The notes beneath the pieces are model-generated. The model worked only from the letters and a program-made list of their open reading frames with translations. It did no database searches and was not told the origin of the DNA. Shown one piece after another: positions 1,165 to 37,692 of a stretch of 37,692 nucleotides of DNA; within the stretch, counting starts at the first letter, position 1, and each line of letters begins with the position of its first letter. A program made the position numbers and the translations under genes. Source of the DNA: a virus (lineage: Duplodnaviria > Heunggongvirae > Uroviricota > Caudoviricetes); IMG/VR virus record IMGVR_UViG_2645727775_000019, positions 1-37,692 of that record; one strand, written 5' to 3'.

Positions 1165-1554
1165 CTACATCACAGGGCAATCATCAAACTCACCAGAACG
1201 CGCATCATTGATGATGTACGTTATCACCCCAAACAAATGCGACTCATCATCAAACAGGCTGGTCGGCTTTGGTATCTCCTCTACCGCTCCAGTCTCAAGA
1301 TTAATCAGATGTGGTTTAGGGTAGCGCTTGTATCGCTTCACTCTGAACTCATTGTCAACTGAACAAATCAGCAACGAGCCATCAAACGGCATCAGTGAAC
1401 TGTCAACGACGAGCAAAGCACCGTACATGATGCCTTCTCGCCAGTACGTTTTCCCTGACCGCATGAAGTACGTTGCCGATGGTTTGCTGATTAACGTCTC
1501 GTCGAGCGATATGCGTTGCTCAACGTAGTCTGCAGCCGGACTCGGGAATCCCAT
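1165..1554 (-). CDS. UmuD'-like (HumD-like) S24-fold protein, starting at the position of the UmuD self-cleavage site
   Basis: 129 aa beginning MGFPSPAADYVEQRI, matching UmuD from Gly25 onward (recalled sequence); true ATG start; the GDSM nucleophile motif reads GKTY here. Confidence 0.75.
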   Translation of the reverse strand: MGFPSPAADYVEQRISLDETLISKPSATYFMRSGKTYWREGIMYGALLVVDSSLMPFDGSLLICSVDNEFRVKRYKRYPKPHLINLETGAVEEIPKPTSLFDDESHLFGVITYIINDARSGEFDDCPVM

Positions 1555-1573: not shown

Positions 1574-1593
1574 TACTGGATAAAATCACAGTA
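1574..1593. promoter_or_regulatory. LexA (SOS) box overlapping the promoter of the UmuD'-like gene
   Basis: Plus-strand TACTGGATAAAATCACAGTA fits TACTG-N10-CAGTA; lies ~20 nt upstream of the minus-strand ATG and overlaps a TATACT -10-like hexamer. Confidence 0.6.
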
Positions 1594-1971: not shown

Positions 1972-2946
1972 CTAAGTATATATTTTTGAGTTTGGTAATG
2001 CCTTCCTGAGCGCTTTAAAAACTATTGAAAGTACGTATTTATATACGTATGCAAAAATACAAACAATTACAACAAACAAGACGGATTTTATCCCATCTGA
2101 ACTTATAAACGATAATAAATGGTATGCTTTCATCAAAAACATGAATTCTATAAGATACATCTCGTAAGATAGTATGCCAATAAATTTCAATGGTGTTATG
2201 TTTATATTTGCAACTCTAAGAATCGATGTAATTCCAATTATAAGAAATGCGCTTGCTATATTTGTTGCTGCATAGTCAAAAAAACTAACATCAATCCCTT
2301 TATAAAAATAAAGGGATAAAATTAAGGACACCAAAGAAACTATGACAAACAAAAGTAATATCCATTTATCTATTGCATATCCTTTGACTTTTTCATACAC
2401 CACTCCAATTAGTGAACCTAGTGGAAATGCAGCAACGTATAGTCCGGCCCCTGCTGGAGGAGGGAATATATCTGCGTTTTTGTAAAGCAATACAGAAAAA
2501 AGGAAAAGGAAGGCTATTTTAATATTAATAGAGATATTAGCGCTAAAAATTAGAAAAAAAGCCAGATACCATATTATTATAAAAGATATATACCACATAC
2601 TAGGATCTATAGTGGCATTCAAATCAATGCCTAGTATGGTAATCGCTAAATGATAAAAGTCATCATTTGTAATTGCTGGATGTCCAAAAGCAATAATCCA
2701 AACAATGGTTATAATAGCGTATGGAACAAGTACTTTTGATAGCCTTTTTGAAAAAAAAGAATCCAACCCTGATTTAATGTAAGATTGCACAAGGCCAAAG
2801 CCTGACAGCATAAGGAATAGAGCAACACCATATGCCCCGGCGTGCGGGATTACATTTACATGCCCAAGCATGACAAGGAGAATAGCAACGCCTTTTAGTT
2901 CAATGGTGTGATCTCTATCAAAAATTACATTACTTATTTTTCTCAT
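1972..2946 (-). CDS. Acyltransferase family 3 integral membrane protein (O-antigen/LPS O-acetyltransferase-like), probable lysogenic conversion gene
   Basis: Multi-TM protein with N-terminal RKISNVIFDRDHTIELKGVAILLVMLGH motif typical of acyltransferase_3; very AT-rich compared with flanks; start taken at internal Met MRKISN. Confidence 0.75.
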   Translation of the reverse strand: MRKISNVIFDRDHTIELKGVAILLVMLGHVNVIPHAGAYGVALFLMLSGFGLVQSYIKSGLDSFFSKRLSKVLVPYAIITIVWIIAFGHPAITNDDFYHLAITILGIDLNATIDPSMWYISFIIIWYLAFFLIFSANISINIKIAFLFLFSVLLYKNADIFPPPAGAGLYVAAFPLGSLIGVVYEKVKGYAIDKWILLLFVIVSLVSLILSLYFYKGIDVSFFDYAATNIASAFLIIGITSILRVANINITPLKFIGILSYEMYLIEFMFLMKAYHLLSFISSDGIKSVLFVVIVCIFAYVYKYVLSIVFKALRKALPNSKIYT

Positions 2947-3149
2947 TTCATGACTACCTGCGCAGTTTTTCATTGCTAATGAATGTTGCATACTTTACAA
3001 AAGTATACTATACAGTATTTGCGTTGTCATTGAATATAAATATACCTGCGGCAGAATCATTATTGAGGAGGCCATAGCAGTGGATAATTCATCCACTGCC
3101 TAGTGCATATATCAATCGCATGATTGTATTTTTGACAAACCTGATTTAG

Positions 3150-23854: not shown

Positions 23855-24520
23855 TCAGTTCGGTTTTGCAAGACTTACGTGCGAACTTGTCGCCTTTTGT
23901 TGTGAACGTGATCGCGTTACTGAGATAAGCGCACCGCTATCGAGTCGCATAAAGCAGCTACGCATTGCCAACCAGTGAGGCAGGTATGTCTCTGTCCAGG
24001 TGGATTTCGCCACGCCAACCAGTTCCGCCAGCTTCTGGTATTCGTAGGCATCTTTCCCGACCAACCCTGCTTTGACATCCTGCGCTGCCAGCCATATCAG
24101 CTTCTTCAGGCGCTCCATGGTCTTGCCTGCCACCCTCTTCGCGCCGAGATACCCCCTGAATTCAGACCACGCCCACTGGGTGATCGCCACCTGGTATTCA
24201 AAGCTGATGTTTTCACTGTAACTCCACAGCAACCACGCTTTCTGATGTTCTTCGAGAGACAGAACCGCGCGGCGCCATGAAGATGTTGAGAACTCAACCT
24301 GGCTGACCAGTGCAATGGATGAACCTTTTGCGTACGACTGCTTACCGGAAATCGGCGGATTATCCAGCGTAATCATCTTGCCCGTTACCTCATCCAGAAT
24401 GCGCGGCTTCTTTCGTTTATATGTACCAGTATCAAATTGTGCATGCTCCAGCCAGGCTTCAAGCTGTTCAACAGTCATACCAGGGTTAAAAAAATATGGC
24501 TGCTGCTTTTCGCCCTGCAT
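23855..24520 (-). CDS. Hypothetical protein (cargo gene X, 221 aa)
   Basis: Start at MQGEKQQPYFF with GGAGG site directly after the tR'-like terminator; the first 23 codons of the ORF-track version are the terminator hairpin itself; no family recognised by eye. Confidence 0.55.
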   Translation of the reverse strand: MQGEKQQPYFFNPGMTVEQLEAWLEHAQFDTGTYKRKKPRILDEVTGKMITLDNPPISGKQSYAKGSSIALVSQVEFSTSSWRRAVLSLEEHQKAWLLWSYSENISFEYQVAITQWAWSEFRGYLGAKRVAGKTMERLKKLIWLAAQDVKAGLVGKDAYEYQKLAELVGVAKSTWTETYLPHWLAMRSCFMRLDSGALISVTRSRSQQKATSSHVSLAKPN

Positions 24521-24531
24521 TATTGACCTCC

Positions 24532-24560
24532 AGAAAAGCAAAAACCCCGCCGAAGCGAGG
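24532..24560 (-). terminator. tR'-like intrinsic terminator just downstream of Q
   Basis: Minus strand CCTCGC-TTCG-GCGGGG hairpin followed by TTTTTGCTTTTCT. Confidence 0.65.
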
Positions 24561-24670
24561 TTTGTTATGATTTCGTTAACGGCAGACATACAAAGCCCAT
24601 CGTTAGGAGAATCCTAACCATATTTTTTGAAAAATGCAAGCATCATGTCGCCATCTTCGGCGAAAATCAT

Positions 24671-25423
24671 TTATCTTGTCACTTTTCTCAATTGTGTCTC
24701 TGCATATGCTTCTTCCTGCCAGCACTTTGTAACCAGTTTATCAATAACATCTGCATATCCTTTGTACCACTGATAATCCGTCAGGTCCGGTACCAGCTTC
24801 TGGACATGATGCCGCGCCAGTGTGGTTGGTAAACGGCTAAACCGGTTTCCATTGCAACGCCCACAAATCTTATAAACAGGCGTGCCATGAAGCCGGGTCC
24901 TTTTTTCATCCAGGACAATACCTTTACCCTTACACCCTCTGCACGCTGTGCTGACTTCTCCCTTACCATGACAATGCTGACATAGTTCCTTCACCCACTC
25001 CTCCTTGATAACAGATTCACCGCTTCTGGAGTGTTTCACCACTTCGCGCAATACATTATGAAATCCAGTACCTGCACAATGCTCACAGCGAGCCTTACTT
25101 GCCGCAGACCTGGAATAATCAGCAAAGGCAAAATTCACAAGGTAAGGGATGATCTGTAACCGGGTTTCTTCACTCAATTTGTTCAATGTCGGGTTATCCA
25201 GTGCCATCGCGTAATTGAGCAGACCTTCAATCGCAAATTGAGGATCCTGAACACCAACTTTTGCCAGGAATAAGGCAAACCCAAGCGGTGCTTTCGACTG
25301 CACCATCCCCTGCGCAGCCATCACATCCGTAATCGTTAAACCACCTGAGCCTGTCGCCGGTGCGTCATCGCTCAATTTTGGAGATTTTGGGGAGTAATAT
25401 TTTGGTAAGGCTTCAAGGTTCAT
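24671..25423 (-). CDS. Late-gene antiterminator Q (lambda-Q family, QuuQ-like)
   Basis: YYSPKSPKLSDDAPATG...TDVMAAQGM, FAFADYSRSAA, Cys-rich zinc-binding region and C-terminal ...RKVTR parallel lambda Q as recalled; ATG with GGAG site, 250 aa. Confidence 0.8.
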   Translation of the reverse strand: MNLEALPKYYSPKSPKLSDDAPATGSGGLTITDVMAAQGMVQSKAPLGFALFLAKVGVQDPQFAIEGLLNYAMALDNPTLNKLSEETRLQIIPYLVNFAFADYSRSAASKARCEHCAGTGFHNVLREVVKHSRSGESVIKEEWVKELCQHCHGKGEVSTACRGCKGKGIVLDEKRTRLHGTPVYKICGRCNGNRFSRLPTTLARHHVQKLVPDLTDYQWYKGYADVIDKLVTKCWQEEAYAETQLRKVTR

Positions 25424-25436
25424 GCTCGTTCTCCAC

Positions 25437-26432
25437 TTACGCCAATACGCCAATTGCCAGCGCACGATCGATAAAACGAAATATCAGCTCCAGCTGGGAG
25501 CCATACTTCTCTTCAAATGCCACGGTATCCGCATGCAGCTCGTCGTGATGCTTTCTGCACAAAGGCAACACAAAGAGGTCATGCGCTTTTGTACCCATTC
25601 CCCCCTGACCGTGACCTATCAGGTGGTGGGGATCATCAGCGGGCTTTCCACAACATGCACACGGCTGTGTCTTAACCCAGCGCGTGTACTTTTCATTAAC
25701 CCAGCGGCGACGTTTTGGGCGTAACATAAAAGACTCCGGCGACTCCGGATCCACTTTCAGCGCCAGCACCTTTTTCGCTTTATCTTGGATGATGCTGGTG
25801 GCAGGAACCGAAGGCACAAGGTCACTTTCCCGGGTGACAGACGGCACAACAGGTTTCGGTAATCTCAGCGCCTTACGGGCTGCGCTTTCAGGTAAGGCAT
25901 CCGCCAGGTCATTACGAATCAGCCACCAGCACAGTTCCGGCATTGTCACGGCATGGTTATCATCAAAACCGAGATCCCGACGGACTACAGACAACACCCA
26001 GCGGGCACAGTTATCCGTTGCCATTGATTCCAGCCGTTCCGTGAACTGATCGCGCAGCTGGTTATCGCAGTGCCAGCACAGACGGATTGCGCCCGGAGCG
26101 TGTCGCATTGTTGTCATGTTCTCGCTGTGCCAGTCGGAATGAAGCCACTGGCAGCCTTTTTCACGAAGTAACCAGCTTTCAAGACATTCCACGCCACCAG
26201 CACGACGGATCACTGCCTCATTGCGGAACACGGCCCGAACGGCAGGATCATCCGCCAGCGGTTGTGATGCCGCGGGAACGGCACCACTGGCGAAAGATGA
26301 ATAACGTTCCGGCTCAGGCTCCAGCAGGACACGCCCCTGCATAAACAAGGGCATCAGCTCTGAACCTGGCCTGAACAATACGATCCCCATACGCGGGGCA
26401 ATTTCAGGGGTCAGTAGTGCTCTCACGGTCAC
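25437..26432 (-). CDS. DUF968-family protein (YdfU-like) with C-terminal Cys/His HNH-like motif
   Basis: 331 aa; C-terminal CACCGKPADDPHHL...CRKHHDELH; located upstream of Q as ydfU is upstream of quuQ in Qin-type prophages. Confidence 0.65.
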   Translation of the reverse strand: MTVRALLTPEIAPRMGIVLFRPGSELMPLFMQGRVLLEPEPERYSSFASGAVPAASQPLADDPAVRAVFRNEAVIRRAGGVECLESWLLREKGCQWLHSDWHSENMTTMRHAPGAIRLCWHCDNQLRDQFTERLESMATDNCARWVLSVVRRDLGFDDNHAVTMPELCWWLIRNDLADALPESAARKALRLPKPVVPSVTRESDLVPSVPATSIIQDKAKKVLALKVDPESPESFMLRPKRRRWVNEKYTRWVKTQPCACCGKPADDPHHLIGHGQGGMGTKAHDLFVLPLCRKHHDELHADTVAFEEKYGSQLELIFRFIDRALAIGVLA

Positions 26433-26433
26433 C

Positions 26434-27243
26434 TCAATGAACGGTATCGAGCAGCTTTAACAGCTCTGGGAATCGGGATTCGAAGAAATGCGGCTGCGTC
26501 TCGCGCGGATTTGCGGGACTGGTGATGTTCTTGCCGAACATGCAGCCTTTCGCTGTCAGCGACCAGAATTTTTTGATGTTGTTAATCGCGGTACGGCTGT
26601 ATCGTTCGCGCTGCTCGACGATCCCCAGCTTCACCATCTGGTGATATGCCTGATTAGCTGTCAGGCGGATACCATACTGCTTCAGCAGTGCACTCAGTGA
26701 CAGCGTGGGGCGGCTTGAGCCATCAGGCGCGTCAGCAGGAGCATCAATGGCATAGCGCGGTGCCAGATTCGGTAAGCCAACAGCCTCCTGGAGTTTCTGA
26801 CAGGCACCAAGCACTGAAGAGTTAGACAGGTTTAATTCCCGGCGCATAAAGTCCAGCAGAATCACACCAGCCTGCATCTTGTCAGCAGCCTGTCCGGATA
26901 ATTTTTCCGGTGCGCTGGTTACCATGTCGAAAGTACGGATCACCTTCAGATGGAATGACGGGCTGATCCACATTGCATAGGCATACACCAGTTCCTTGCA
27001 GACATACGTTCCCCGTTCATTTCCCCCATGAATCACACTCACCGGGTCAACACCCAAATTCTGGGTGTTGGTCAATTCATGAACAAGCTCAACAGTTTGT
27101 TGGCTGGAAAGAAACTTTCCTGGCTCCTTGGTTCTGGCATTTGCACCAGATGCTACTGCTGCGCGATGCAGATCGTTCAGACTGTAACGCCCATAAGCAT
27201 CACGACGAACTTCAATACCATCAATGACCATCAGATTATTCAT
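26434..27243 (-). CDS. KilA-N domain protein / antirepressor-like
   Basis: 269 aa; N-terminal KilA-N-like region; AGGAG site upstream. Confidence 0.65.
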   Translation of the reverse strand: MNNLMVIDGIEVRRDAYGRYSLNDLHRAAVASGANARTKEPGKFLSSQQTVELVHELTNTQNLGVDPVSVIHGGNERGTYVCKELVYAYAMWISPSFHLKVIRTFDMVTSAPEKLSGQAADKMQAGVILLDFMRRELNLSNSSVLGACQKLQEAVGLPNLAPRYAIDAPADAPDGSSRPTLSLSALLKQYGIRLTANQAYHQMVKLGIVEQRERYSRTAINNIKKFWSLTAKGCMFGKNITSPANPRETQPHFFESRFPELLKLLDTVH

Positions 27244-27262: not shown

Positions 27263-27652
27263 TCAGGCGGCTGCACCCGCCGTTTTCTCGAACTTACTGA
27301 TAGTGATCTCGACCTTCCCTTTCGGGATAACCGGTCCCCACTCAACCAGCATTCTTTTCACCTGACTGTCGTCTTCCCACACACCCGCGTGGGTCAGGGC
27401 GTCAAACAGCGCCTTGTTATAGTTGTCCAGATCGCGGATCCGGTTATCCGGAGGAAACAACACAATCTCTACTGAAGCTGGTGCCGACGTTGGTTTCGGC
27501 AAACGACGTAACTGCTCAACTATTGCTGAGCACGCCGCGCTCTGGAATTTGCGCCCCGCCGCGCTTATCAGGCTCTTACCTGCAAACGCCCCTTTGTTGG
27601 GGTGTCGCCAGTACGAGTTCACGCTGGGCGGGAAAGGCAGGATCAGCTTCAT
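27263..27652 (-). CDS. rusA: Holliday junction resolvase RusA
   Basis: 129 aa, MKLILPFPPSVNSYW start typical of RusA. Confidence 0.85.
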   Translation of the reverse strand: MKLILPFPPSVNSYWRHPNKGAFAGKSLISAAGRKFQSAACSAIVEQLRRLPKPTSAPASVEIVLFPPDNRIRDLDNYNKALFDALTHAGVWEDDSQVKRMLVEWGPVIPKGKVEITISKFEKTAGAAA

Positions 27653-27975
27653 ACTTTCAGGCCCCTCTCATGTAACCAGTGGGCTGCACGCAGCCTGCCG
27701 TTTTCCTCACCGGCAAGCAGTGCGCGGATAATCCCGACCGCCTCGCTGTCGTCGTCCTTCACCGCGGTATGAAGCGTTATCCCCCGGGCCACGCCACGCT
27801 TTATCGTGATGACGCCTTTTTTCTCCAGTGCACGAAGATGCTCTACCGCTGCATTCACTGAACGGTATCCCAGCATGGTTGCCACCTCCTGATTGGTTGG
27901 CGGAAAGCCACGCTCTTTCTGGTAAGAAATCAGCATATCCAGCACCTGCTGCTGGCATTGAGTTAACGTCGTCAT
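27649..27975 (-). CDS. LexA-type N-terminal DNA-binding domain protein without peptidase domain
   Basis: 108 aa; QQQVLDMLISYQKERGFPPTNQEVATMLGYRSVNAAVEHLRALEKKGVI resembles the LexA winged-helix domain; no S24 domain follows. Confidence 0.55.
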   Translation of the reverse strand: MTTLTQCQQQVLDMLISYQKERGFPPTNQEVATMLGYRSVNAAVEHLRALEKKGVITIKRGVARGITLHTAVKDDDSEAVGIIRALLAGEENGRLRAAHWLHERGLKV

Positions 27976-28625
27976 GCCGCCATCTCCCTGACCAGTTTTT
28001 CCGCCTGCTGGCGAACCTGCACCAGAAAGGCCTCACCACATGCCTCAAGTTCATCGCGCCCGATGTAGCTGATTGTCGGTCCCTTCCAGGTCTTGTCGAA
28101 AACAGCAATAGCACCAGCGAAGAACGCTCCTGTCGGCACCTGCTTCTCGTCCTTCGGGATAAACCAGGCAGGCAGTTCAAAACCAATACGCCCGCGAATA
28201 AAAGCAATATGGTCCGCATCTTCCGGCCACCACACTTCGCTGGTGGCAGCTTTGATCAGGAAAACATAGCGCCCGCCCTTATCACGCATGGCACTGGCAT
28301 GTTTCATGATGTAACGCATGCCGGTGATGTATTGCCCCTCATGCTGACTGGCGCGGCTGTATGGAGGATTTCCAAAGGCAGCACCTTTAAGCTCCGCAAG
28401 ACGTTCTGACCAGTCATGCGCCAGCGCGTTGTCTTCCGCCGTGTAATACGCGGCGCATTTGGCGTTATCACCGTCAGTAAACAGATCCAGAACAAACGGG
28501 CCAAACAGGGTGTTAATTCCCCAGAAAATGTTGTCCGGTGTGCGCCACTGATCGCCCACTTCCTTCAGTTCATGGGCTGGTTTGTTTCGCAACTCCACCA
28601 GCGCCTGGCAATATTTATTACTCAT
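27972..28625 (-). CDS. Phage N6-adenine DNA methyltransferase (Dam-type)
   Basis: NPPY catalytic motif (FGNPPYSRA); ATG start at MSNKYCQ overlaps upstream stop as TAATG. Confidence 0.75.
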   Translation of the reverse strand: MSNKYCQALVELRNKPAHELKEVGDQWRTPDNIFWGINTLFGPFVLDLFTDGDNAKCAAYYTAEDNALAHDWSERLAELKGAAFGNPPYSRASQHEGQYITGMRYIMKHASAMRDKGGRYVFLIKAATSEVWWPEDADHIAFIRGRIGFELPAWFIPKDEKQVPTGAFFAGAIAVFDKTWKGPTISYIGRDELEACGEAFLVQVRQQAEKLVREMAA

Positions 28626-29113
28626 TAAGCCCCCACGTAATTCCCTGACAGATACCACTCATCACCCGATACAGCGCGCTTGCTGCTTTTCCGTAAGCAC
28701 CGCTCACGATGCGCCAGAAAATTGTTTCGTTCTGGCTGGGAGTGGCTTTCACGGAATGCCGCCATCCACACCGTTGCAGCACGACGGTATAAGCCCCTTG
28801 ACTCCAGTTCTTCAGCCTGGCGGGTCAGGCACAAAATCACCCGGGGATCGTTAGTGCCGACATAGAAATTGCGCACAGGTCTGGTTTCACGAACTGGTTG
28901 TGGTTCCGACTCCTGCGCTCTCTCAGTCAGGCGCGGGAAATGTCTGCGTGTATCTCCTTCACAACGGTGAGCCACACGCCCACTCTGACGTAACTTGCTT
29001 GCTGACTGCAGAACGCGCTGCCGTGAGTAACCTGCAAAAGCATCCGCAATGTCTCCGGAAGTACACCCCGGATGGGCTTCAATGAATTTCTGAACTTCAT
29101 TCAAAAGACTCAT
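28625..29113 (-). CDS. Hypothetical regulator with C-terminal ANR/PerC-like motif
   Basis: Start at ATG (MSLLNEVQKF) with GGGGGTG site; C-terminal RGLYRRAATVWMAAF resembles ANR-family small regulators. Confidence 0.45.
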   Translation of the reverse strand: MSLLNEVQKFIEAHPGCTSGDIADAFAGYSRQRVLQSASKLRQSGRVAHRCEGDTRRHFPRLTERAQESEPQPVRETRPVRNFYVGTNDPRVILCLTRQAEELESRGLYRRAATVWMAAFRESHSQPERNNFLAHRERCLRKSSKRAVSGDEWYLSGNYVGA

Positions 29114-29115
29114 AA

Positions 29116-30057
29116 TCACCCCCTGAATCCTGCCGGGATCTGGCTGTAGTCCACATTGTCGTAACTGGCTTTGAAGTACGGGTCTTCACGTTTTTCTGTG
29201 TGCGTGCTGACGGACGGCGATAAGCGCAGGGAAAGCTCATCCCATTTTTCCCGCAACTTCGACGGGCTGAGCACGTTACGGCACCAGAACGGATCGCGGC
29301 TGACGCGGCTGTACATCTCGCAGATTTGTTTGTGAGTACGACCATCCTGCACACACATCAGGCGAATTTCGTTTGCCCAGGCTGTCCAGTTAGGTTCTTT
29401 GGGACGAACCACCTCGCCGTCACATTCGGCGGCCTGCTCGTACAGGGCGATGATTTTTTTCCAGAGCCACTGTGCGCAGGTCAAATCATCCTGCGTTCCC
29501 CACTGGCGCTTTTTAGGGCTGAATACAACCGCATCAGGATGGCGAGTTAAAAAATCCTGTTCATCCATCTGCGTGTCCGGTTGCGAAGCGTCCGGACGAG
29601 AAGGTTTTTTATCTGATGGATCATGTTTTGATTTTACTGACGGATCCCCGCCAGATTCTGACGGGTGAAAACCCGCTTTTTTGCCAGATTTCGACGCATC
29701 AAATTTTGACGGGTCAGATTTTGATGCGTCAGATTTTGACGGGTCAGAATCTGACAGTTGAGAAAATGCCGCTGCCTGAAGCTTCGCAACGTTAAGCTGA
29801 TAAACATTCGACGCATTGCGGTTACCCTGGCGACGCGCCTTACGCGTTAACCAGCCTTCTGCTTCCAGCCGTGCGATAGCCGTTCTGACGGTACTCATCC
29901 CCGCGCCAATCTGGCGGGCAATGGTTTCAATTGATGGCCAGCACACACCTTCGTCATTACTGAAATCAGCCAGGCGGGCCATAATTGCCACGCTGGATAA
30001 TTTCATGCCTGACGCTGCGCAACCATCCCATACATAGCCGGTTAATTTAGTGCTCAT
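29116..30057 (-). CDS. Replication initiator (lambda O-like, HTH N-terminal domain), origin embedded in gene
   Basis: 313 aa; N-terminal HTH replication-protein domain; central linker encoded by tandem DNA repeats (iterons). Confidence 0.7.
   Translation of the reverse strand: MSTKLTGYVWDGCAASGMKLSSVAIMARLADFSNDEGVCWPSIETIARQIGAGMSTVRTAIARLEAEGWLTRKARRQGNRNASNVYQLNVAKLQAAAFSQLSDSDPSKSDASKSDPSKFDASKSGKKAGFHPSESGGDPSVKSKHDPSDKKPSRPDASQPDTQMDEQDFLTRHPDAVVFSPKKRQWGTQDDLTCAQWLWKKIIALYEQAAECDGEVVRPKEPNWTAWANEIRLMCVQDGRTHKQICEMYSRVSRDPFWCRNVLSPSKLREKWDELSLRLSPSVSTHTEKREDPYFKASYDNVDYSQIPAGFRG
29653..29760. repeat. Iteron array (putative ori) inside the O-like gene
   Basis: Three perfect and at least two degenerate ~15-bp tandem units ATTTTGAC(G/A)(G/C)GTCAG, each with internal TGAC/GTCA symmetry; AT-rich stretch adjacent at ~29600-29645. 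Confidence 0.6.
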
Positions 30058-31293: not shown

Positions 31294-31968
31294 ATGAAAA
31301 CAATCCATGACATCCGGCGGTCTAACGCCAGAAAACTGAGAGATGGTGTTGGCGGGAATTCTTCCTTTGCCACTATGATTGATCGCGAGCCAACCCAGAC
31401 CAGCAGGTTTATGGGAGATGGTGCTACTAAAAATATCGGTGACAGCATGGCACGACACATCGAAAAATGTTTCGACCTACCTGTCGGATGGCTCGATCAA
31501 GAACACCAGACAACGAACATCACAAAAAAACCTGATGTTTCAATCACTAATAAACAAATCACATTAGTCCCTGTCATATCATGGGTACAGGCCGGAGCAT
31601 GGAAAGAAGTTGGATATTCTGAGGTTGATTTGAGCACAGCAGAAACGTATCCCTGCCCTGTACCCTGTGGGGAAATGACTTATATCTTGCGGGTGATAGG
31701 TGATTCAATGATTGATGAGTACCGCCCGGGAGACATGATTTTTGTCGATCCTGAAGTACCTGCCTGCCACGGTGACGACGTTATTGCATTGATGCACGAT
31801 ACAGGTGAAACCACCTTCAAAAGGTTAATAGAAGATGGGACACAGCGTTATCTCAAAGCGTTAAACCCAAACTGGCCTGAGCCTTACATTAAGATCAACG
31901 GTAATTGCTCTATAATTGGTACAGTGATTTTCTCAGGAAAACCAAGAAGATACAAAATCAAAGCCTAA
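31294..31968 (+). CDS. cI: CI-like repressor (HTH plus S24 autopeptidase domain)
   Basis: 224 aa; C-terminal GDSM Ser and FKRL Lys dyad intact. Confidence 0.85.
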   Translation: MKTIHDIRRSNARKLRDGVGGNSSFATMIDREPTQTSRFMGDGATKNIGDSMARHIEKCFDLPVGWLDQEHQTTNITKKPDVSITNKQITLVPVISWVQAGAWKEVGYSEVDLSTAETYPCPVPCGEMTYILRVIGDSMIDEYRPGDMIFVDPEVPACHGDDVIALMHDTGETTFKRLIEDGTQRYLKALNPNWPEPYIKINGNCSIIGTVIFSGKPRRYKIKA

Positions 31969-35716: not shown

Positions 35717-35917
35717 ATGCAACACGAACTACAACCTGATTCACTGGTTGATTTGAAATTCATCATGGCTGATACTGGCTTCGGTAAGACCTTCATCTAT
35801 GACCGGATTAAGTCCGGCGACCTGCCTAAAGCCAAAGTTATCCACGGACGAGCAAGATGGTTATATCGTGACCATTGTGAATTCAAAAATAAGCTCTTAA
35901 GCCGCGCCAATGGGTAA
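35717..35917 (+). CDS. torI: AlpA/TorI-type excisionase (recombination directionality factor)
   Basis: 66 aa MQHELQPDSLVDLKFIMADTGFGKTFIYDRIKSGDLPKAKV...; winged-helix Xis fold family; adjacent to attR. Confidence 0.85.
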   Translation: MQHELQPDSLVDLKFIMADTGFGKTFIYDRIKSGDLPKAKVIHGRARWLYRDHCEFKNKLLSRANG

Positions 35918-36444: not shown

Positions 36445-37692
36445 TTATATTGCTGAAGGTACTGGCGTTTCCATCACTATTTGCTCACGTTTTTTACTCA
36501 GGAAGAAAATGCCAAATAGCAACATCAGGCAGACAATACCCGAAATTGCGAAAAAAACCGTCTGGTAGCCTGCGTGGTCAAAGAGTATCCCAGTCGGCGT
36601 TGAAAGCAGCACAATCCCCAACGAACTGGCAATTTGAAAACCAATCAGAAAGATCGTCGACGACAGGCGCTTATCAAAATTTGCCACGCTGTATTTGAAG
36701 ACGGATATGACACAAAGTGGAACCTCAATGGCATGTAACAGCTTCACTAATGAAATAATCCAGGGGTTAACGAATAGCGCGCAGGAAAGGATACGCAACG
36801 CCATAATCACAACACCGATAAGTAATGCATTTTTTGGCCCTACCCGATTCACAAAGAAAGGAATAATCGCCATGCACAGCGCTTCGAGTACCACCTGGAA
36901 TGAGTTGAGATAACCATACAGGCGCGTTCCTACATCGTGTGATTCGAATAAACCTGCATAAAAGACAGGAAAGAGTTGTTGATCAAAAATGTTATAGAAA
37001 GACCACGTCCCCACAATAAATATGACGAAAACCCAGAAGTTTCGATCCTTGAAAACTGCGATAAAATCCTCTTTTTTTACCCCTCCCGCATCCGCCGCTA
37101 TGCACTGGTGATCCTTATCTTTAAAACGCATGTTGATCATCATAAATACAGCGCCAAATAGCGAGACCAACCAGAAGTTGATATGGGGACTGATACTAAA
37201 AAATATACCGGCAAAGAACGCGCCAATAGCATAGCCAAAAGATCCCCAGGCGCGCGCTGTTCCATATTCGAAATGAAAATTTCGCGCCATTTTTTCGGTG
37301 AAGCTGTCAAGCAAACCGCATCCCGCCAGATACCCCAGGCCAAAAAAGAGCGCCCCCAGAATTAGACCTGCAGAAAAATTGCTTTGCAGTAACGGTTCAT
37401 AAACGTAAATCATAAACGGTCCGGTCAAGACCAGAATGAAACTCATACACCAGATGAGCGGTTTCTTCAGACCGAGTTTATCCTGAACGATGCCGTAGAA
37501 CATCATAAATAGAATGCTGGTAAACTGGTTGACCGAATAAAGTGTACCTAATTCCGTCCCTGTTAATCCTAGATGTCCTTTCAGCCAAATAGCGTATAAT
37601 GACCACCACAGCGACCAGGAAATAAAAAAGAGAAATGAGTAACTGGATGCAAAACGATAGTACGCATTTCTGAATGGAATATTCAGTGCCAT
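36445..37692 (-). CDS. cscB: LacY-family oligosaccharide:H+ symporter (sucrose permease CscB-like), host gene
   Basis: 415 aa, 12-TM MFS permease with LacY-like N-terminus; outside the prophage. Confidence 0.75.
   Translation of the reverse strand: MALNIPFRNAYYRFASSYSFLFFISWSLWWSLYAIWLKGHLGLTGTELGTLYSVNQFTSILFMMFYGIVQDKLGLKKPLIWCMSFILVLTGPFMIYVYEPLLQSNFSAGLILGALFFGLGYLAGCGLLDSFTEKMARNFHFEYGTARAWGSFGYAIGAFFAGIFFSISPHINFWLVSLFGAVFMMINMRFKDKDHQCIAADAGGVKKEDFIAVFKDRNFWVFVIFIVGTWSFYNIFDQQLFPVFYAGLFESHDVGTRLYGYLNSFQVVLEALCMAIIPFFVNRVGPKNALLIGVVIMALRILSCALFVNPWIISLVKLLHAIEVPLCVISVFKYSVANFDKRLSSTIFLIGFQIASSLGIVLLSTPTGILFDHAGYQTVFFAISGIVCLMLLFGIFFLSKKREQIVMETPVPSAI

Follow-up and report, generated by a model that had tools for sequence, protein, structure and literature searches.

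Introduction

One of the closest described counterparts of the protein at the centre of this study is gp6 of the Bacillus thuringiensis tectivirus GIL01. This LexA homologue, truncated yet functional, is produced by an early operon, carries only a 14-residue extension, and has a changed recognition helix in which Lys38 is critical; it recognises GaCACAnnTGTGaC and turns on a late promoter (PMC6182141). In phage lambda, a neighbour of the resolvase gene rap/ninG encodes NinH, which mimics Fis (PMC7166090). In host LexA, the DNA-contact residues of helix 3 are given as Ser39, Asn41, Ala42, Glu44, and Glu45 (PMC3091678). Moreover, the K-12 prophage KplE1, to which the present locus is related, has its integration site at argW (PMC2951348, PMC3509656).

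The region considered here lies within a window that comprises the whole stretch of viral DNA analysed (37,692 nucleotides). Its gene content is already known: the same genes carry annotations in the Shigella phage SfII, in Stx2 phages, and in roughly one half of the complete E. coli genomes, 2745 of 5426 of which hold a match to the region. As gene content, therefore, the region matters little. What is new here is the behaviour of dam as an optional cassette with exact ends, the linkage of a truncated lexA-like gene to rusA, the presence of methylase genes upstream of it, and a fusion found in Kluyvera.

Over 2.9 kb, the region shares 97.7% identity with SfII, and genes SfII_41-45 of that phage are annotated in the same order as O, PerC family, dam, 'LexA DNA binding domain protein', and RusA. 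However, SfII carries gtr serotype-conversion genes where the window has humD and an acyltransferase gene. As judged from sequence, the first two genes of the chain that follows O are those known in K-12 as yfdN and yfdM: CPS-53/KplE1 keeps yfdO, yfdN, and yfdM with the same overlaps, K-12 YfdN is 95% identical to the window protein, YfdM equals the first 89 residues of the Dam protein of the window (100% identical), and TorI is also 100% identical to its window counterpart. In contrast, the K-12 element is deleted from inside dam onward and lacks both the truncated lexA-like gene and rusA.

Gene Chain and Probable Transcription Unit

All genes of the chain are encoded on the minus strand. The chain is headed by the gene of an O-like replication initiator of 313 amino acids (29116-30057; HTH_36; phrog_391 'replication initiation O-like', E=1.5e-135), inside which a repeat search detected candidate origin iterons (family D1; 29685-29759), namely about five copies of a CAGATTTTGACGGGT-like repeat with a 15-bp period; since the ori of lambda lies inside O, these iterons are, by analogy, probably the origin. 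There follow the genes for a YfdN-type PerC-family protein of 162 amino acids (28625-29113; 164 amino acids from GTG; PF06069, phrog_1324), an orphan phage N6-adenine DNA methyltransferase of the Dam type with 217 amino acids (27972-28625; PF05869, TIGR01712, NPPY), a truncated LexA homologue of 108 amino acids, hereafter LexA-head (27649-27975; PF01726), and a RusA-family Holliday junction resolvase of 129 amino acids (27263-27652; PF05866, phrog_34). After RusA, the same unit continues with a KilA-N protein (26434-27243; PF04383) and a DUF968/HNH protein (25437-26432; PF06147, HNHc_6), after which come the Q antiterminator genes. The three domain calls of the central genes (PerC, Dam, and LexA_DNA_bind) all exceed curated thresholds.

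The original prediction held that the genes downstream of O are chained by stop/start overlaps, and these are seen at every junction that it named. The O stop codon TGA (29118-29116) overlaps an alternative GTG start of yfdN (29119) as GTGA, and the ATG at 29113, located 2 nt past the O stop and behind a GGGGG Shine-Dalgarno, is the better-placed start; the PerC stop and the Dam start share TAATG (28627-28623), and the Dam stop and the LexA-head start share ATGA (27975-27972). A fourth overlap, previously missed, joins the LexA-head stop to the RusA start, again as ATGA (27652-27649), and a Shine-Dalgarno-like G-run is located within the upstream gene at every junction of the chain. This chaining is real yet not special, as stop/start overlap is a habit of the whole phage, with 1- or 4-nt overlaps at 13 of the 36 same-strand gene junctions in the window.

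No terminator-like site was found on the minus strand between 30057 and 25750, that is, from O to DUF968, and thus the chain would be part of one long early-right transcription unit. The former notion of a self-contained three-gene module was not borne out: the chain spans from O to RusA and beyond, and the genes past RusA (KilA-N, DUF968/HNH, then Q) keep their order in SfII and in distant relatives. After loss of the repressor, a single transcript would run from cro/cII through O, YfdN, Dam, LexA-head, RusA, KilA-N, and DUF968 to Q, and ribosomes would cross from gene to gene at the 1- to 4-nt stop/start overlaps, as at one third of the junctions of this phage. The genes of the chain would, in such an arrangement, represent independent accessory functions in a mosaic slot of a nin-like early-right operon.

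The PerC-Family Regulator YfdN

The 162-aa protein had been read as a regulator in two parts, and its AF2 model agrees, with a winged helix (residues 1-60), a disordered linker (63-84), and a three-helix PerC domain (90-149); the mean pLDDT is 76.8, and both folded domains reach about 90. The PerC profile PF06069 matches residues 98-151 with 36.6 bits against a cut-off of 22.6. The RGLYRRAATVWMAAF motif is indeed present, at residues 106-120 and thus in the C-terminal half, but it does not end the protein, as had been proposed. The 'ANR-like' label did not hold: the ANR model NF033650 covers only residues 96-128 and reaches 21.2 bits, below its cut-off of 32, and the family is PerC and the gene K-12 yfdN. 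Membership among the AraC negative regulators, which are small single-domain proteins, was accordingly rejected for this two-domain protein of 162 amino acids. The search for relatives of known structure by sequence returned none for YfdN, and its N-terminal domain matches just generic MarR/ArsR winged helices with non-significant E-values.

As with the PerC/Pch proteins, which activate the LEE1 (ler) promoter in EPEC and EHEC, the C-terminal three-helix domain of YfdN matches Pfam PerC. However, the Pch proteins are shorter than YfdN and consist of the PerC domain only, whereas YfdN carries an extra N-terminal winged helix and linker, and no LEE target is implied for it in this host. YfdN would be a regulator of the PerC family that carries a winged helix in addition. 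The gene has been described as the K-12 homologue of PerC, and the pch genes, which encode the PerC homologues of EHEC, are prophage-encoded (PMC5931665), as is YfdN. The deletion of yfdN served in that work only as a clean background (PMC5931665), and no report of YfdN activity was found in the literature searched.

The Dam Methyltransferase Cassette

The call of an NPPY N6-adenine methyltransferase proved sound, as family models and motif agree. The protein scores 156 bits against PF05869 and 254.9 bits, over its full length, against TIGR01712 (cut-off 97.05), and the activity motif is in place, with GNPPY at residues 85-89; no relative of known structure was found by sequence. The full-length match, the NPPY motif, and the orphan state of the enzyme, which has no restriction partner, are shared with the phage Dam family, of which the Dam proteins of T1, HP1, and VT2 are members and from which the methylase of the window shows no notable difference. 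PADLOC assigned MTase_II to it at 520 bits over the full length and, when partner nuclease or defence genes beside the methylase were sought, returned only MTase models for Dam and nothing significant for its neighbours, which are the PerC and LexA-head genes. A defence, anti-defence, or restriction-modification system was consequently discarded as a candidate.

The dam gene is an optional cassette that comes and goes precisely. It is missing in about 28 of 80 near-identical viral contigs, all of which keep the LexA-head gene, and the dam-less junction falls exactly at TAATGA, the cassette being cut precisely at the ATGA overlaps: the dam-less sequence reads GGGGGC[T/G]TAATGACG, as compared with TAATGAGT...GGCATGACG when dam is present.

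In a survey of 233 related LexA-head loci, the gene immediately preceding that of LexA-head encodes a DNA methyltransferase in about 135 of 232 (about 58%), and four kinds of enzyme occupy this position: MT-A70, Dam (PF05869), C5, and C5 fused to D12. A DinI-like gene is found there in 13 loci, and a PerC or replication gene in about 50. Foreign methylases reportedly induce SOS in E. coli via Mcr/Mrr (Heitman and Model are said to have described this in 1987), and it might be argued from this and from the frequency of methylase and DinI-like neighbours that methylase and LexA-head form a functional unit, in which, for instance, an uncleavable mimic damps the SOS response provoked by phage methylation of host DNA. 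We regard such a unit as quite improbable. About one third of otherwise identical phages keep the LexA-head gene and lack dam, the PerC and replication genes take the upstream place in the loci mentioned, and several unrelated methylase families at one position resemble a cargo slot rather than a partnership. Furthermore, the target of the enzyme is presumably GATC, as for characterised phage Dam members, and GATC methylation would not be foreign in E. coli because this host is already Dam-positive. The frequency of GATC in the window is also ordinary, with 145 sites observed and 146 expected from base composition. Avoidance or clustering of GATC was examined as a sign of Dam biology and likewise dismissed, with no cluster near the dam and LexA-head genes.

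LexA-Head, a LexA Homologue without the Protease Domain

As had been predicted, the 108-aa protein is genuinely homologous to LexA but truncated, and profile, alignment, AF2 model, and Foldseek search all show the DNA-binding domain of LexA with the S24 protease domain missing. It falls in the LexA family PF01726 rather than in an unrelated helix-turn-helix family, scoring 69 bits against a cut-off of 23.7 over all 65 model positions, and aligns without gaps to residues 1-68 of E. coli LexA with 51.5% identity (LexA N-terminal domain, E=7e-16). The AF2 model (mean pLDDT 83.7) retrieved 1lea and 3jso, with about 50% identity and an rmsd of 1.0-1.3 Å across 67-69 residues, and it superposes on LexA in the DNA complex 3jso to within 1.0-1.1 Å. 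The winged helix-turn-helix (1-68) is followed by a short linker and a two-helix hairpin (75-87, 91-103) that replaces the protease domain; no match to the Peptidase_S24 profile was found in the protein, which ends at residue 108. Among the five contact residues named in PMC3091678, S39, N41, A42, and E45 are kept and E44 is replaced by Val; R28 is replaced by Asn, and the recognition helix differs from that of LexA at positions 40 and 44, with more variation in relatives. In more distant relatives, E45 becomes D, G, A, S, I, or L, and therefore SOS-box reading is not a family-wide constraint.

A short LLAGE stretch aligns weakly with the VAAGE of LexA and was considered as a retained cleavage site that the host protease domain could cut in trans. 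This was rejected because the stretch varies in relatives, which show LLANE, LLVGE, VERE, TRK, or DDQ, the Ala-Gly pair not being conserved. Since LexA-head has neither a protease domain nor a conserved Ala-Gly site, it cannot be cleaved.

Such a short open reading frame could be a decaying, functionless remnant of a captured lexA gene, given that it is shorter than LexA and scores 70.1 bits against the lexA equivalog TIGR00498, below the cut-off of 110.95. Nevertheless, 738 contigs carry the exact sequence and its 90% cluster comprises 2527 members, relatives down to about 40% identity share the same length and architecture, including the conserved two-helix tail and the invariant residues S39, N41, R64, G65, and I66, and the predicted fold is confident, all of which makes decay, already disfavoured, barely credible. 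In the literature searched, no experimental study of an enterobacterial phage LexA-head protein was found.

Linkage and Fusion of LexA-Head to RusA

The RusA protein encoded after LexA-head scores 55.6 bits against PF05866 (cut-off 22.8) and only 71 bits against NF007305, the narrow model for DLP12 RusA, whose cut-off is 200, and therefore represents a divergent subfamily of RusA. In the survey of related loci, the next gene after that of LexA-head is rusA in 195 of 229 (about 85%), usually with a 4-nt overlap, and this linkage persists in relatives down to 43% identity with different upstream genes. In Kluyvera, the head (1-68) and a 13-aa linker are fused in frame to full-length RusA, which takes the place of the tail; the fusion cluster contains 18 distinct sequences, 17 of them 208 aa long, from K. 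ascorbata, K. cryocrescens, and metagenomes. A second fusion, P0158, joins a LexA head to the HNH half of DUF968.

These observations hint at a role as RusA partner, in which LexA-head would be an accessory subunit or regulator of RusA, and perhaps also of the DUF968/HNH nuclease, with the head targeting DNA and the tail binding RusA, and would not be an SOS transcription factor at all. The linkage is tight and old, and both fusions, as well as the lack of a promoter region of its own in which the LexA-head gene could house an operator, would fit. However, shared gene order in mosaic phages can be a matter of position alone, about 25 loci have no adjoining rusA, the DUF968 fusion is a singleton, and deletion fusions arise in decaying prophages, where PerC-RusA fusions (P0289, P0290, and P0296) also exist. 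Moreover, the Kluyvera fusion is equally compatible with a tail that is a mere dimerisation device, because RusA is a homodimer. This explanation seems unlikely.

SOS Boxes and the Proposed Role of LexA-Head

The presence of an SOS box before a UmuD'-like gene was confirmed. The gene, humD, encodes a protein of 129 amino acids with the S24 peptidase fold only (1165-1554, minus strand; Peptidase_S24; HumD equivalog NF051876, 217.8 bits against a cut-off of 120), and it is preceded by the sole strong SOS (LexA) box of the window, TACTGTGATTTTATCCAGTA (1574-1593, minus strand), which matches CTGT-N8-ACAG with one mismatch and overlaps the -10 element of the humD promoter TTGCTG-17-TATACT. No perfect CTGT-N8-ACAG occurs in the window, and matches with one mismatch number 18, as compared with 11.9±3.4 in shuffled sequences, 3 of 100 of which reach 18. 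Near-match boxes thus exceed the shuffled level mildly at best, and the humD box is the one convincing site. Across the whole window, CTGT/ACAG palindromes with spacings of 0-20 show no enrichment and no candidate operator.

The best overall explanation, which has about an even chance of being correct, is that the region forms part of the nin-like early-right operon in an intact lambdoid prophage of the KplE1/CPS-53/SfII type, in other words an ordinary early operon, to which is added an uncleavable LexA-head acting as a RecA-independent DNA-binding regulator. LexA-head would dimerise via its two-helix tail and bind CTGT half-sites of the LexA type while the phage grows lytically and the LexA of the host has been destroyed, and would in this way regulate independently of RecA. 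Occupancy of SOS boxes is plausible on sequence grounds, and it fits the four retained contact residues. Nevertheless, the half-site spacing of a helical-hairpin dimer need not equal that of LexA, and the genes conserved beside that of LexA-head encode RusA and DNA methylases rather than SOS functions; both points count against an SOS mimic.

As with GIL01 gp6, LexA-head might instead have a phage-specific operator and control a phage promoter, for example in late-gene timing, rather than host SOS boxes. gp6 recognises a palindrome of its own and turns on the late promoter P3 (PMC6182141), members of PHROG 362, which LexA-head matches, are labelled 'transcriptional repressor', and the departures of the recognition helix from LexA at positions 40 and 44, with their further variation in relatives, would agree with another target. 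However, the palindrome search described above gave no over-represented CTGT-containing candidate, the phage already carries two Q-type antiterminator genes for late control, and the four residues credited in LexA with reading the SOS half-site are kept, so that this possibility appears rather improbable.

The RecA-independent regulator of the best explanation can be placed in a wider, more tentative proposal, which we regard as less likely than not. LexA-head may belong to an unstudied, conserved nin-region family of enterobacterial lambdoid phages in which a LexA winged helix is combined with exchangeable tails, and it may serve either as a RecA-proof stand-in for LexA that re-silences SOS genes after induction, among them ruvAB and competing elements under LexA control, or as a partner that directs RusA to DNA. 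The residual value of the region lies in this 108-aa protein, with which prophages that are themselves SOS-induced carry an abundant version of the SOS repressor head that cannot be cleaved. Were it to bind SOS boxes, the phage would possess its own means of switching off both the damage response of the host and the competitors that LexA controls in pathogenic E. coli and Shigella; were it to act with RusA, that resolvase would have its first known partner.

Comparison with Known DNA-Binding Systems

LexA-head resembles gp6 of GIL01 in being phage-encoded, in belonging to an early operon, and in consisting mainly of the LexA winged helix-turn-helix, with no protease or dimerisation domain (PMC6182141). 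However, it has a helical hairpin tail of 40 residues, sits before rusA in a lambdoid nin region, and keeps S39, N41, A42, and E45 of LexA, contact residues according to PMC3091678. From host LexA, with which it shares gapless residues 1-68 and a fold within about 1 Å, it differs in the absence of the S24 catalytic domain, of Ser119 and Lys156, and of a conserved Ala84-Gly85 site, and probably also in its dimerisation element. Lambda NinH contains the helix-turn-helix of Fis and not the winged helix of LexA, its gene is located downstream of the resolvase gene whereas that of LexA-head is upstream, and the resolvase is Rap instead of RusA. Nevertheless, both NinH and LexA-head are small phage copies of the DNA-binding part of a global DNA-binding protein of the host, encoded in the nin region beside a resolvase gene.

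LexA-Head Protein

The 108-aa protein (27975-27649, minus strand), predicted earlier to be a LexA DNA-binding domain lacking the protease domain, matches all 65 positions of the Pfam LexA_DNA_bind model (PF01726; 69 bits, cut-off 23.7), scores below the cut-off of the lexA equivalog model (TIGR00498; 70.1 bits, cut-off 110.95), and contains no protease domain. It aligns with residues 2-70 of E. coli LexA (E=7e-16), with 51.5% identity over a gap-free stretch of residues 1-68. The AlphaFold2 model (mean pLDDT 83.7) reproduces the helices and wing of LexA (helices 6-22, 28-35, and 40-52; strands 56-58 and 66-68), followed by a low-confidence linker and a tail of two helices (75-87 and 91-103), and Foldseek places the head within 1.0-1.3 Å of the LexA N-terminal domain, including DNA-bound LexA (3jso). 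LexA contacts DNA through Ser39, Asn41, Ala42, Glu44, and Glu45 (PMC3091678), of which four are kept in the 108-aa protein and Glu44 is replaced by Val. The LLAGE motif, aligned by HMMER to VAAGE of the LexA cleavage region, varies among relatives, and the protease domain is missing; the protein therefore cannot respond to RecA in the manner of LexA. In the favoured reading, it would act as an uncleavable LexA-type DNA binder, paired via its hairpin tail and recognizing CTGT-type half-sites in the lytic phase.

When 1.84 billion representatives were scanned in full with HMMER, relatives covering both head and tail were recovered, with lengths of 105-135 aa, identities down to about 40%, and a common tail pattern, EAV-x-(I/L)(I/L)(R/Q)(A/E)(L/M)(L/I)...A...(W/F/Y)L. 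Family members resemble E. coli LexA (43-59% identity over the head) about as closely as they resemble each other (44-69%). Ser39 and Asn41 never vary and Ala42 is mostly retained. At position 45, about half of the members have Glu, and the others have Asp, Gly, Ala, Ser, Ile, or Leu; the protein of the window is thus among the most LexA-like of its family, and SOS-box recognition is not obviously a family-wide constraint. In species-level genome scans, the family was seen in Enterobacteriaceae prophages only, in Shigella, Citrobacter, Kluyvera, Kosakonia, Enterobacter, and Franconibacter. The representative search also returned metagenomic proteins (P0132, P0133, and P0152) that carry two tandem LexA-type heads on a single polypeptide and lack a protease domain; these are single-chain pseudo-dimers.

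Gene Chain and Transcription

All genes of the chain are encoded on the minus strand: an O-like replication initiator (30057-29116, 313 aa), a PerC-family protein (29113-28625, 162 aa, or 164 aa if GTG at 29119 is taken as the alternative start), a methyltransferase (28625-27972, 217 aa), the LexA-head protein, and RusA (27652-27263, 129 aa), all delimited by ORF listing and direct reading. The O/PerC junction is GGGGGTGATTATG, where the GTG shares bases with the O stop codon and an ATG lies 2 nt further on, the PerC/Dam junction is TAATG, and the Dam/LexA-head junction is ATGA. The stop/start overlaps of the original prediction are therefore present in the sequence, but the chain exceeds the three genes proposed and reaches RusA through another ATGA, which was missing from that list. 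A G-rich Shine-Dalgarno sequence lies inside the upstream gene at every junction. Nevertheless, such chaining is not unusual, since in a greedy gene set covering the whole window 13 of 36 same-strand junctions show a 1- or 4-nt overlap between start and upstream stop; genes are tightly packed throughout the phage.

Beyond RusA, a 19-nt gap is followed by genes for KilA-N and DUF968/HNH proteins and then by two Q-type antiterminator genes, and no terminator-like hairpin was found on the coding strand from 30057 to about 25750. Most likely, the region is read within one early-right transcript once the S24-type CI repressor (31294-31968) is lost, with the overlaps crossed by ribosome re-initiation. 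Taken whole, this operon reading, with the 108-aa protein as a specific LexA-type DNA-binding regulator, stands at roughly even chances. The tandem Q-type genes (23855-25465, minus strand) differ from each other (PF03589 at 25465-24671; PF06323 at 24589-23855), and terminator-like hairpins occur just within the second ORF (24563-24542, strong) and past it (23789-23768). About five 15-bp iterons (CAGATTTTGACGGGT-like; 29685-29759) within the O gene encode a repetitive SDPSK peptide stretch and probably form the replication origin; O is not followed by any P, DnaC, or helicase-loader gene.

The 162-aa protein deserves its earlier label of PerC-like (PF06069; 36.6 bits, cut-off 22.6). By contrast, its ANR-like label reflects a sub-threshold resemblance of residues 96-128 alone (NF033650; 21.2 bits, cut-off 32), and ANR membership is not supported. 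Its AlphaFold2 model, built from 16 homologues (mean pLDDT 76.8), has three parts: a confident winged helix (1-60) weakly resembling generic MarR/ArsR winged helices, a disordered linker (63-84), and three confident helices (90-149). The 217-aa protein, called an NPPY methylase from the start, carries GNPPY at residues 85-89 and exceeds the cut-offs of PF05869 (Dam; 156 bits, cut-off 28.1) and TIGR01712 (254.9 bits, cut-off 97), also matching PADLOC MTase_II over its full length (520 bits, E=1.1e-157).

Gene Neighbourhood

Of the new results, gene context proved the most informative. Across 233 loci drawn from four subfamilies, rusA lies directly downstream of the LexA-head gene at 195 of the 229 loci scored, and DUF968 at 25. 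Directly upstream (232 loci scored) are MT-A70 methylase (about 60), Dam (PF05869; 55), PerC (about 33), a replication gene (19), an unknown 85-aa gene (16), a C5 methylase fused to a D12 methylase (15; about 600-750 aa), a DinI-like gene (13), or a C5 methylase alone (5). Methyltransferases of four kinds (MT-A70, Dam, C5, and C5+D12) thus occupy the upstream slot, as in loci L088, L096-L101, L113, L158, and others. One subfamily (L215-L229) has the DinI-like gene (PF06183; e.g., L228:2341-2592) just upstream and DUF968, not rusA, downstream, and has NAVALHL in its recognition helix in place of NAAVEHL.

Among 80 viral contigs chosen for a near-identical LexA-head gene (loci L003-L082), dam is present in about 50 and absent in about 28. 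Where dam is missing, the stop of the PerC gene and the start of the LexA-head gene overlap as TAATGACG, and therefore the cassette boundaries fall exactly at the ATGA/TAATGA stop-start overlaps. Hence dam (27972-28625) is an optional presence/absence cassette and a clean case of gene-boundary mosaicism. A functional pairing of the 108-aa protein with the methylase is very improbable; YfdN, the methylase, and the LexA head would be independent accessory functions in a mosaic slot.

In Kluyvera, head residues 1-68, a 13-residue linker, and a complete RusA are joined in frame, the tail being replaced; head-RusA fusions of 208 and 212 aa occur at L095:3001-3627 and L096:3001-3639. The 208-aa cluster comprises 18 different sequences, found in K. 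ascorbata, K. cryocrescens, and metagenomes, so the fusion is a maintained gene rather than an artefact of assembly. RusA, a homodimer, can substitute for the helical hairpin. In P0158, a 240-aa singleton from one ENA contig, the head is joined to the HNH-bearing C-terminal half of DUF968, and L106 and P0135 form one lineage with a different, longer C-terminal domain; thus, the head is a module that accepts different tails. That the 108-aa protein serves as a RusA partner, as gene order and the Kluyvera fusion might suggest, is unlikely, and a DNA-binding role paired through the hairpin is preferred.

SOS Boxes

The window contains no perfect CTGT-N8-ACAG; one-mismatch versions number 18 versus 11.9±3.4 in shuffles, and other CTGT/ACAG spacings gave no signal. 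The sole convincing SOS box is the near-consensus TACTGTGATTTTATCCAGTA (1574-1593), which overlaps the -10 element of a promoter (TTGCTG-17-TATACT) and lies 20 nt upstream of a 129-aa gene (1165-1554, minus strand), as expected from the SOS box reported before a UmuD'-like gene. The product is a HumD-family UmuD' analogue (NF051876, 217.8 bits) with the S24 fold only, encoded next to the integrase gene. Thus, the prophage holds both a head-less S24 protein and a protease-less LexA head. The narrower claim that the 108-aa protein occupies host SOS boxes is possible but doubtful.

Origin and Known Relatives

Shigella phage SfII matches the 2.9-kb stretch at 97.7% identity, and its genes SfII_41 to SfII_45 already carry the labels O protein, PerC activator family, dam, "LexA DNA binding domain protein", and RusA; the stretch is also present in Stx2a and Stx2c phages. 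Matches occur in 2745 of 5426 complete E. coli genomes, and 1079 carry at least 80% of it. Because gene string and annotations are public and extremely common, the finding as written is already known; the modest new observations are that methylase slot, LexA-head gene, and rusA keep their order, that the cassette is bounded exactly by ATGA overlaps, and that the head is fused to RusA in Kluyvera. The limited literature searched contained no experimental study of this enterobacterial protein, which is absence of evidence only.

The K-12 CPS-53/KplE1 cryptic prophage keeps yfdO-yfdN-yfdM with overlaps identical to those of the window; its YfdN is 95% identical to the PerC protein, and YfdM corresponds to the first 89 residues of the methylase (100%), cut just past NPPY. 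Together with the integrase (1-1158), a 66-aa ORF (35717-35917) 100% identical to the K-12 TorI excisionase, and a LacY-family permease (36445-37692), which we take to be CscB, these identities show the window to be an intact KplE1/CPS-53-type prophage of the argW-side locus; it contains no tRNA gene. KplE1 integrates at argW and has been studied for IntS/TorI recombination (PMC2951348, PMC3509656). An Acyl_transf_3 gene (1972-2991, minus strand), likely encoding an O-antigen acetylase, lies next to int, where SfII and CPS-53 carry gtrA/gtrB/gtr(type) glucosylation genes instead.

A precedent is gp6 of the Bacillus thuringiensis tectivirus GIL01, a truncated LexA homologue that has acquired an operator of its own and switches on late genes (PMC6182141). 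By analogy, the 108-aa protein might regulate its own phage operator, which seems improbable for a head retaining most LexA contacts, and binding to LexA-type half-sites remains the favoured reading. Mimicry of a host regulator has a further parallel in lambda NinH, which mimics host Fis and is encoded beside the resolvase gene rap (PMC7166090).
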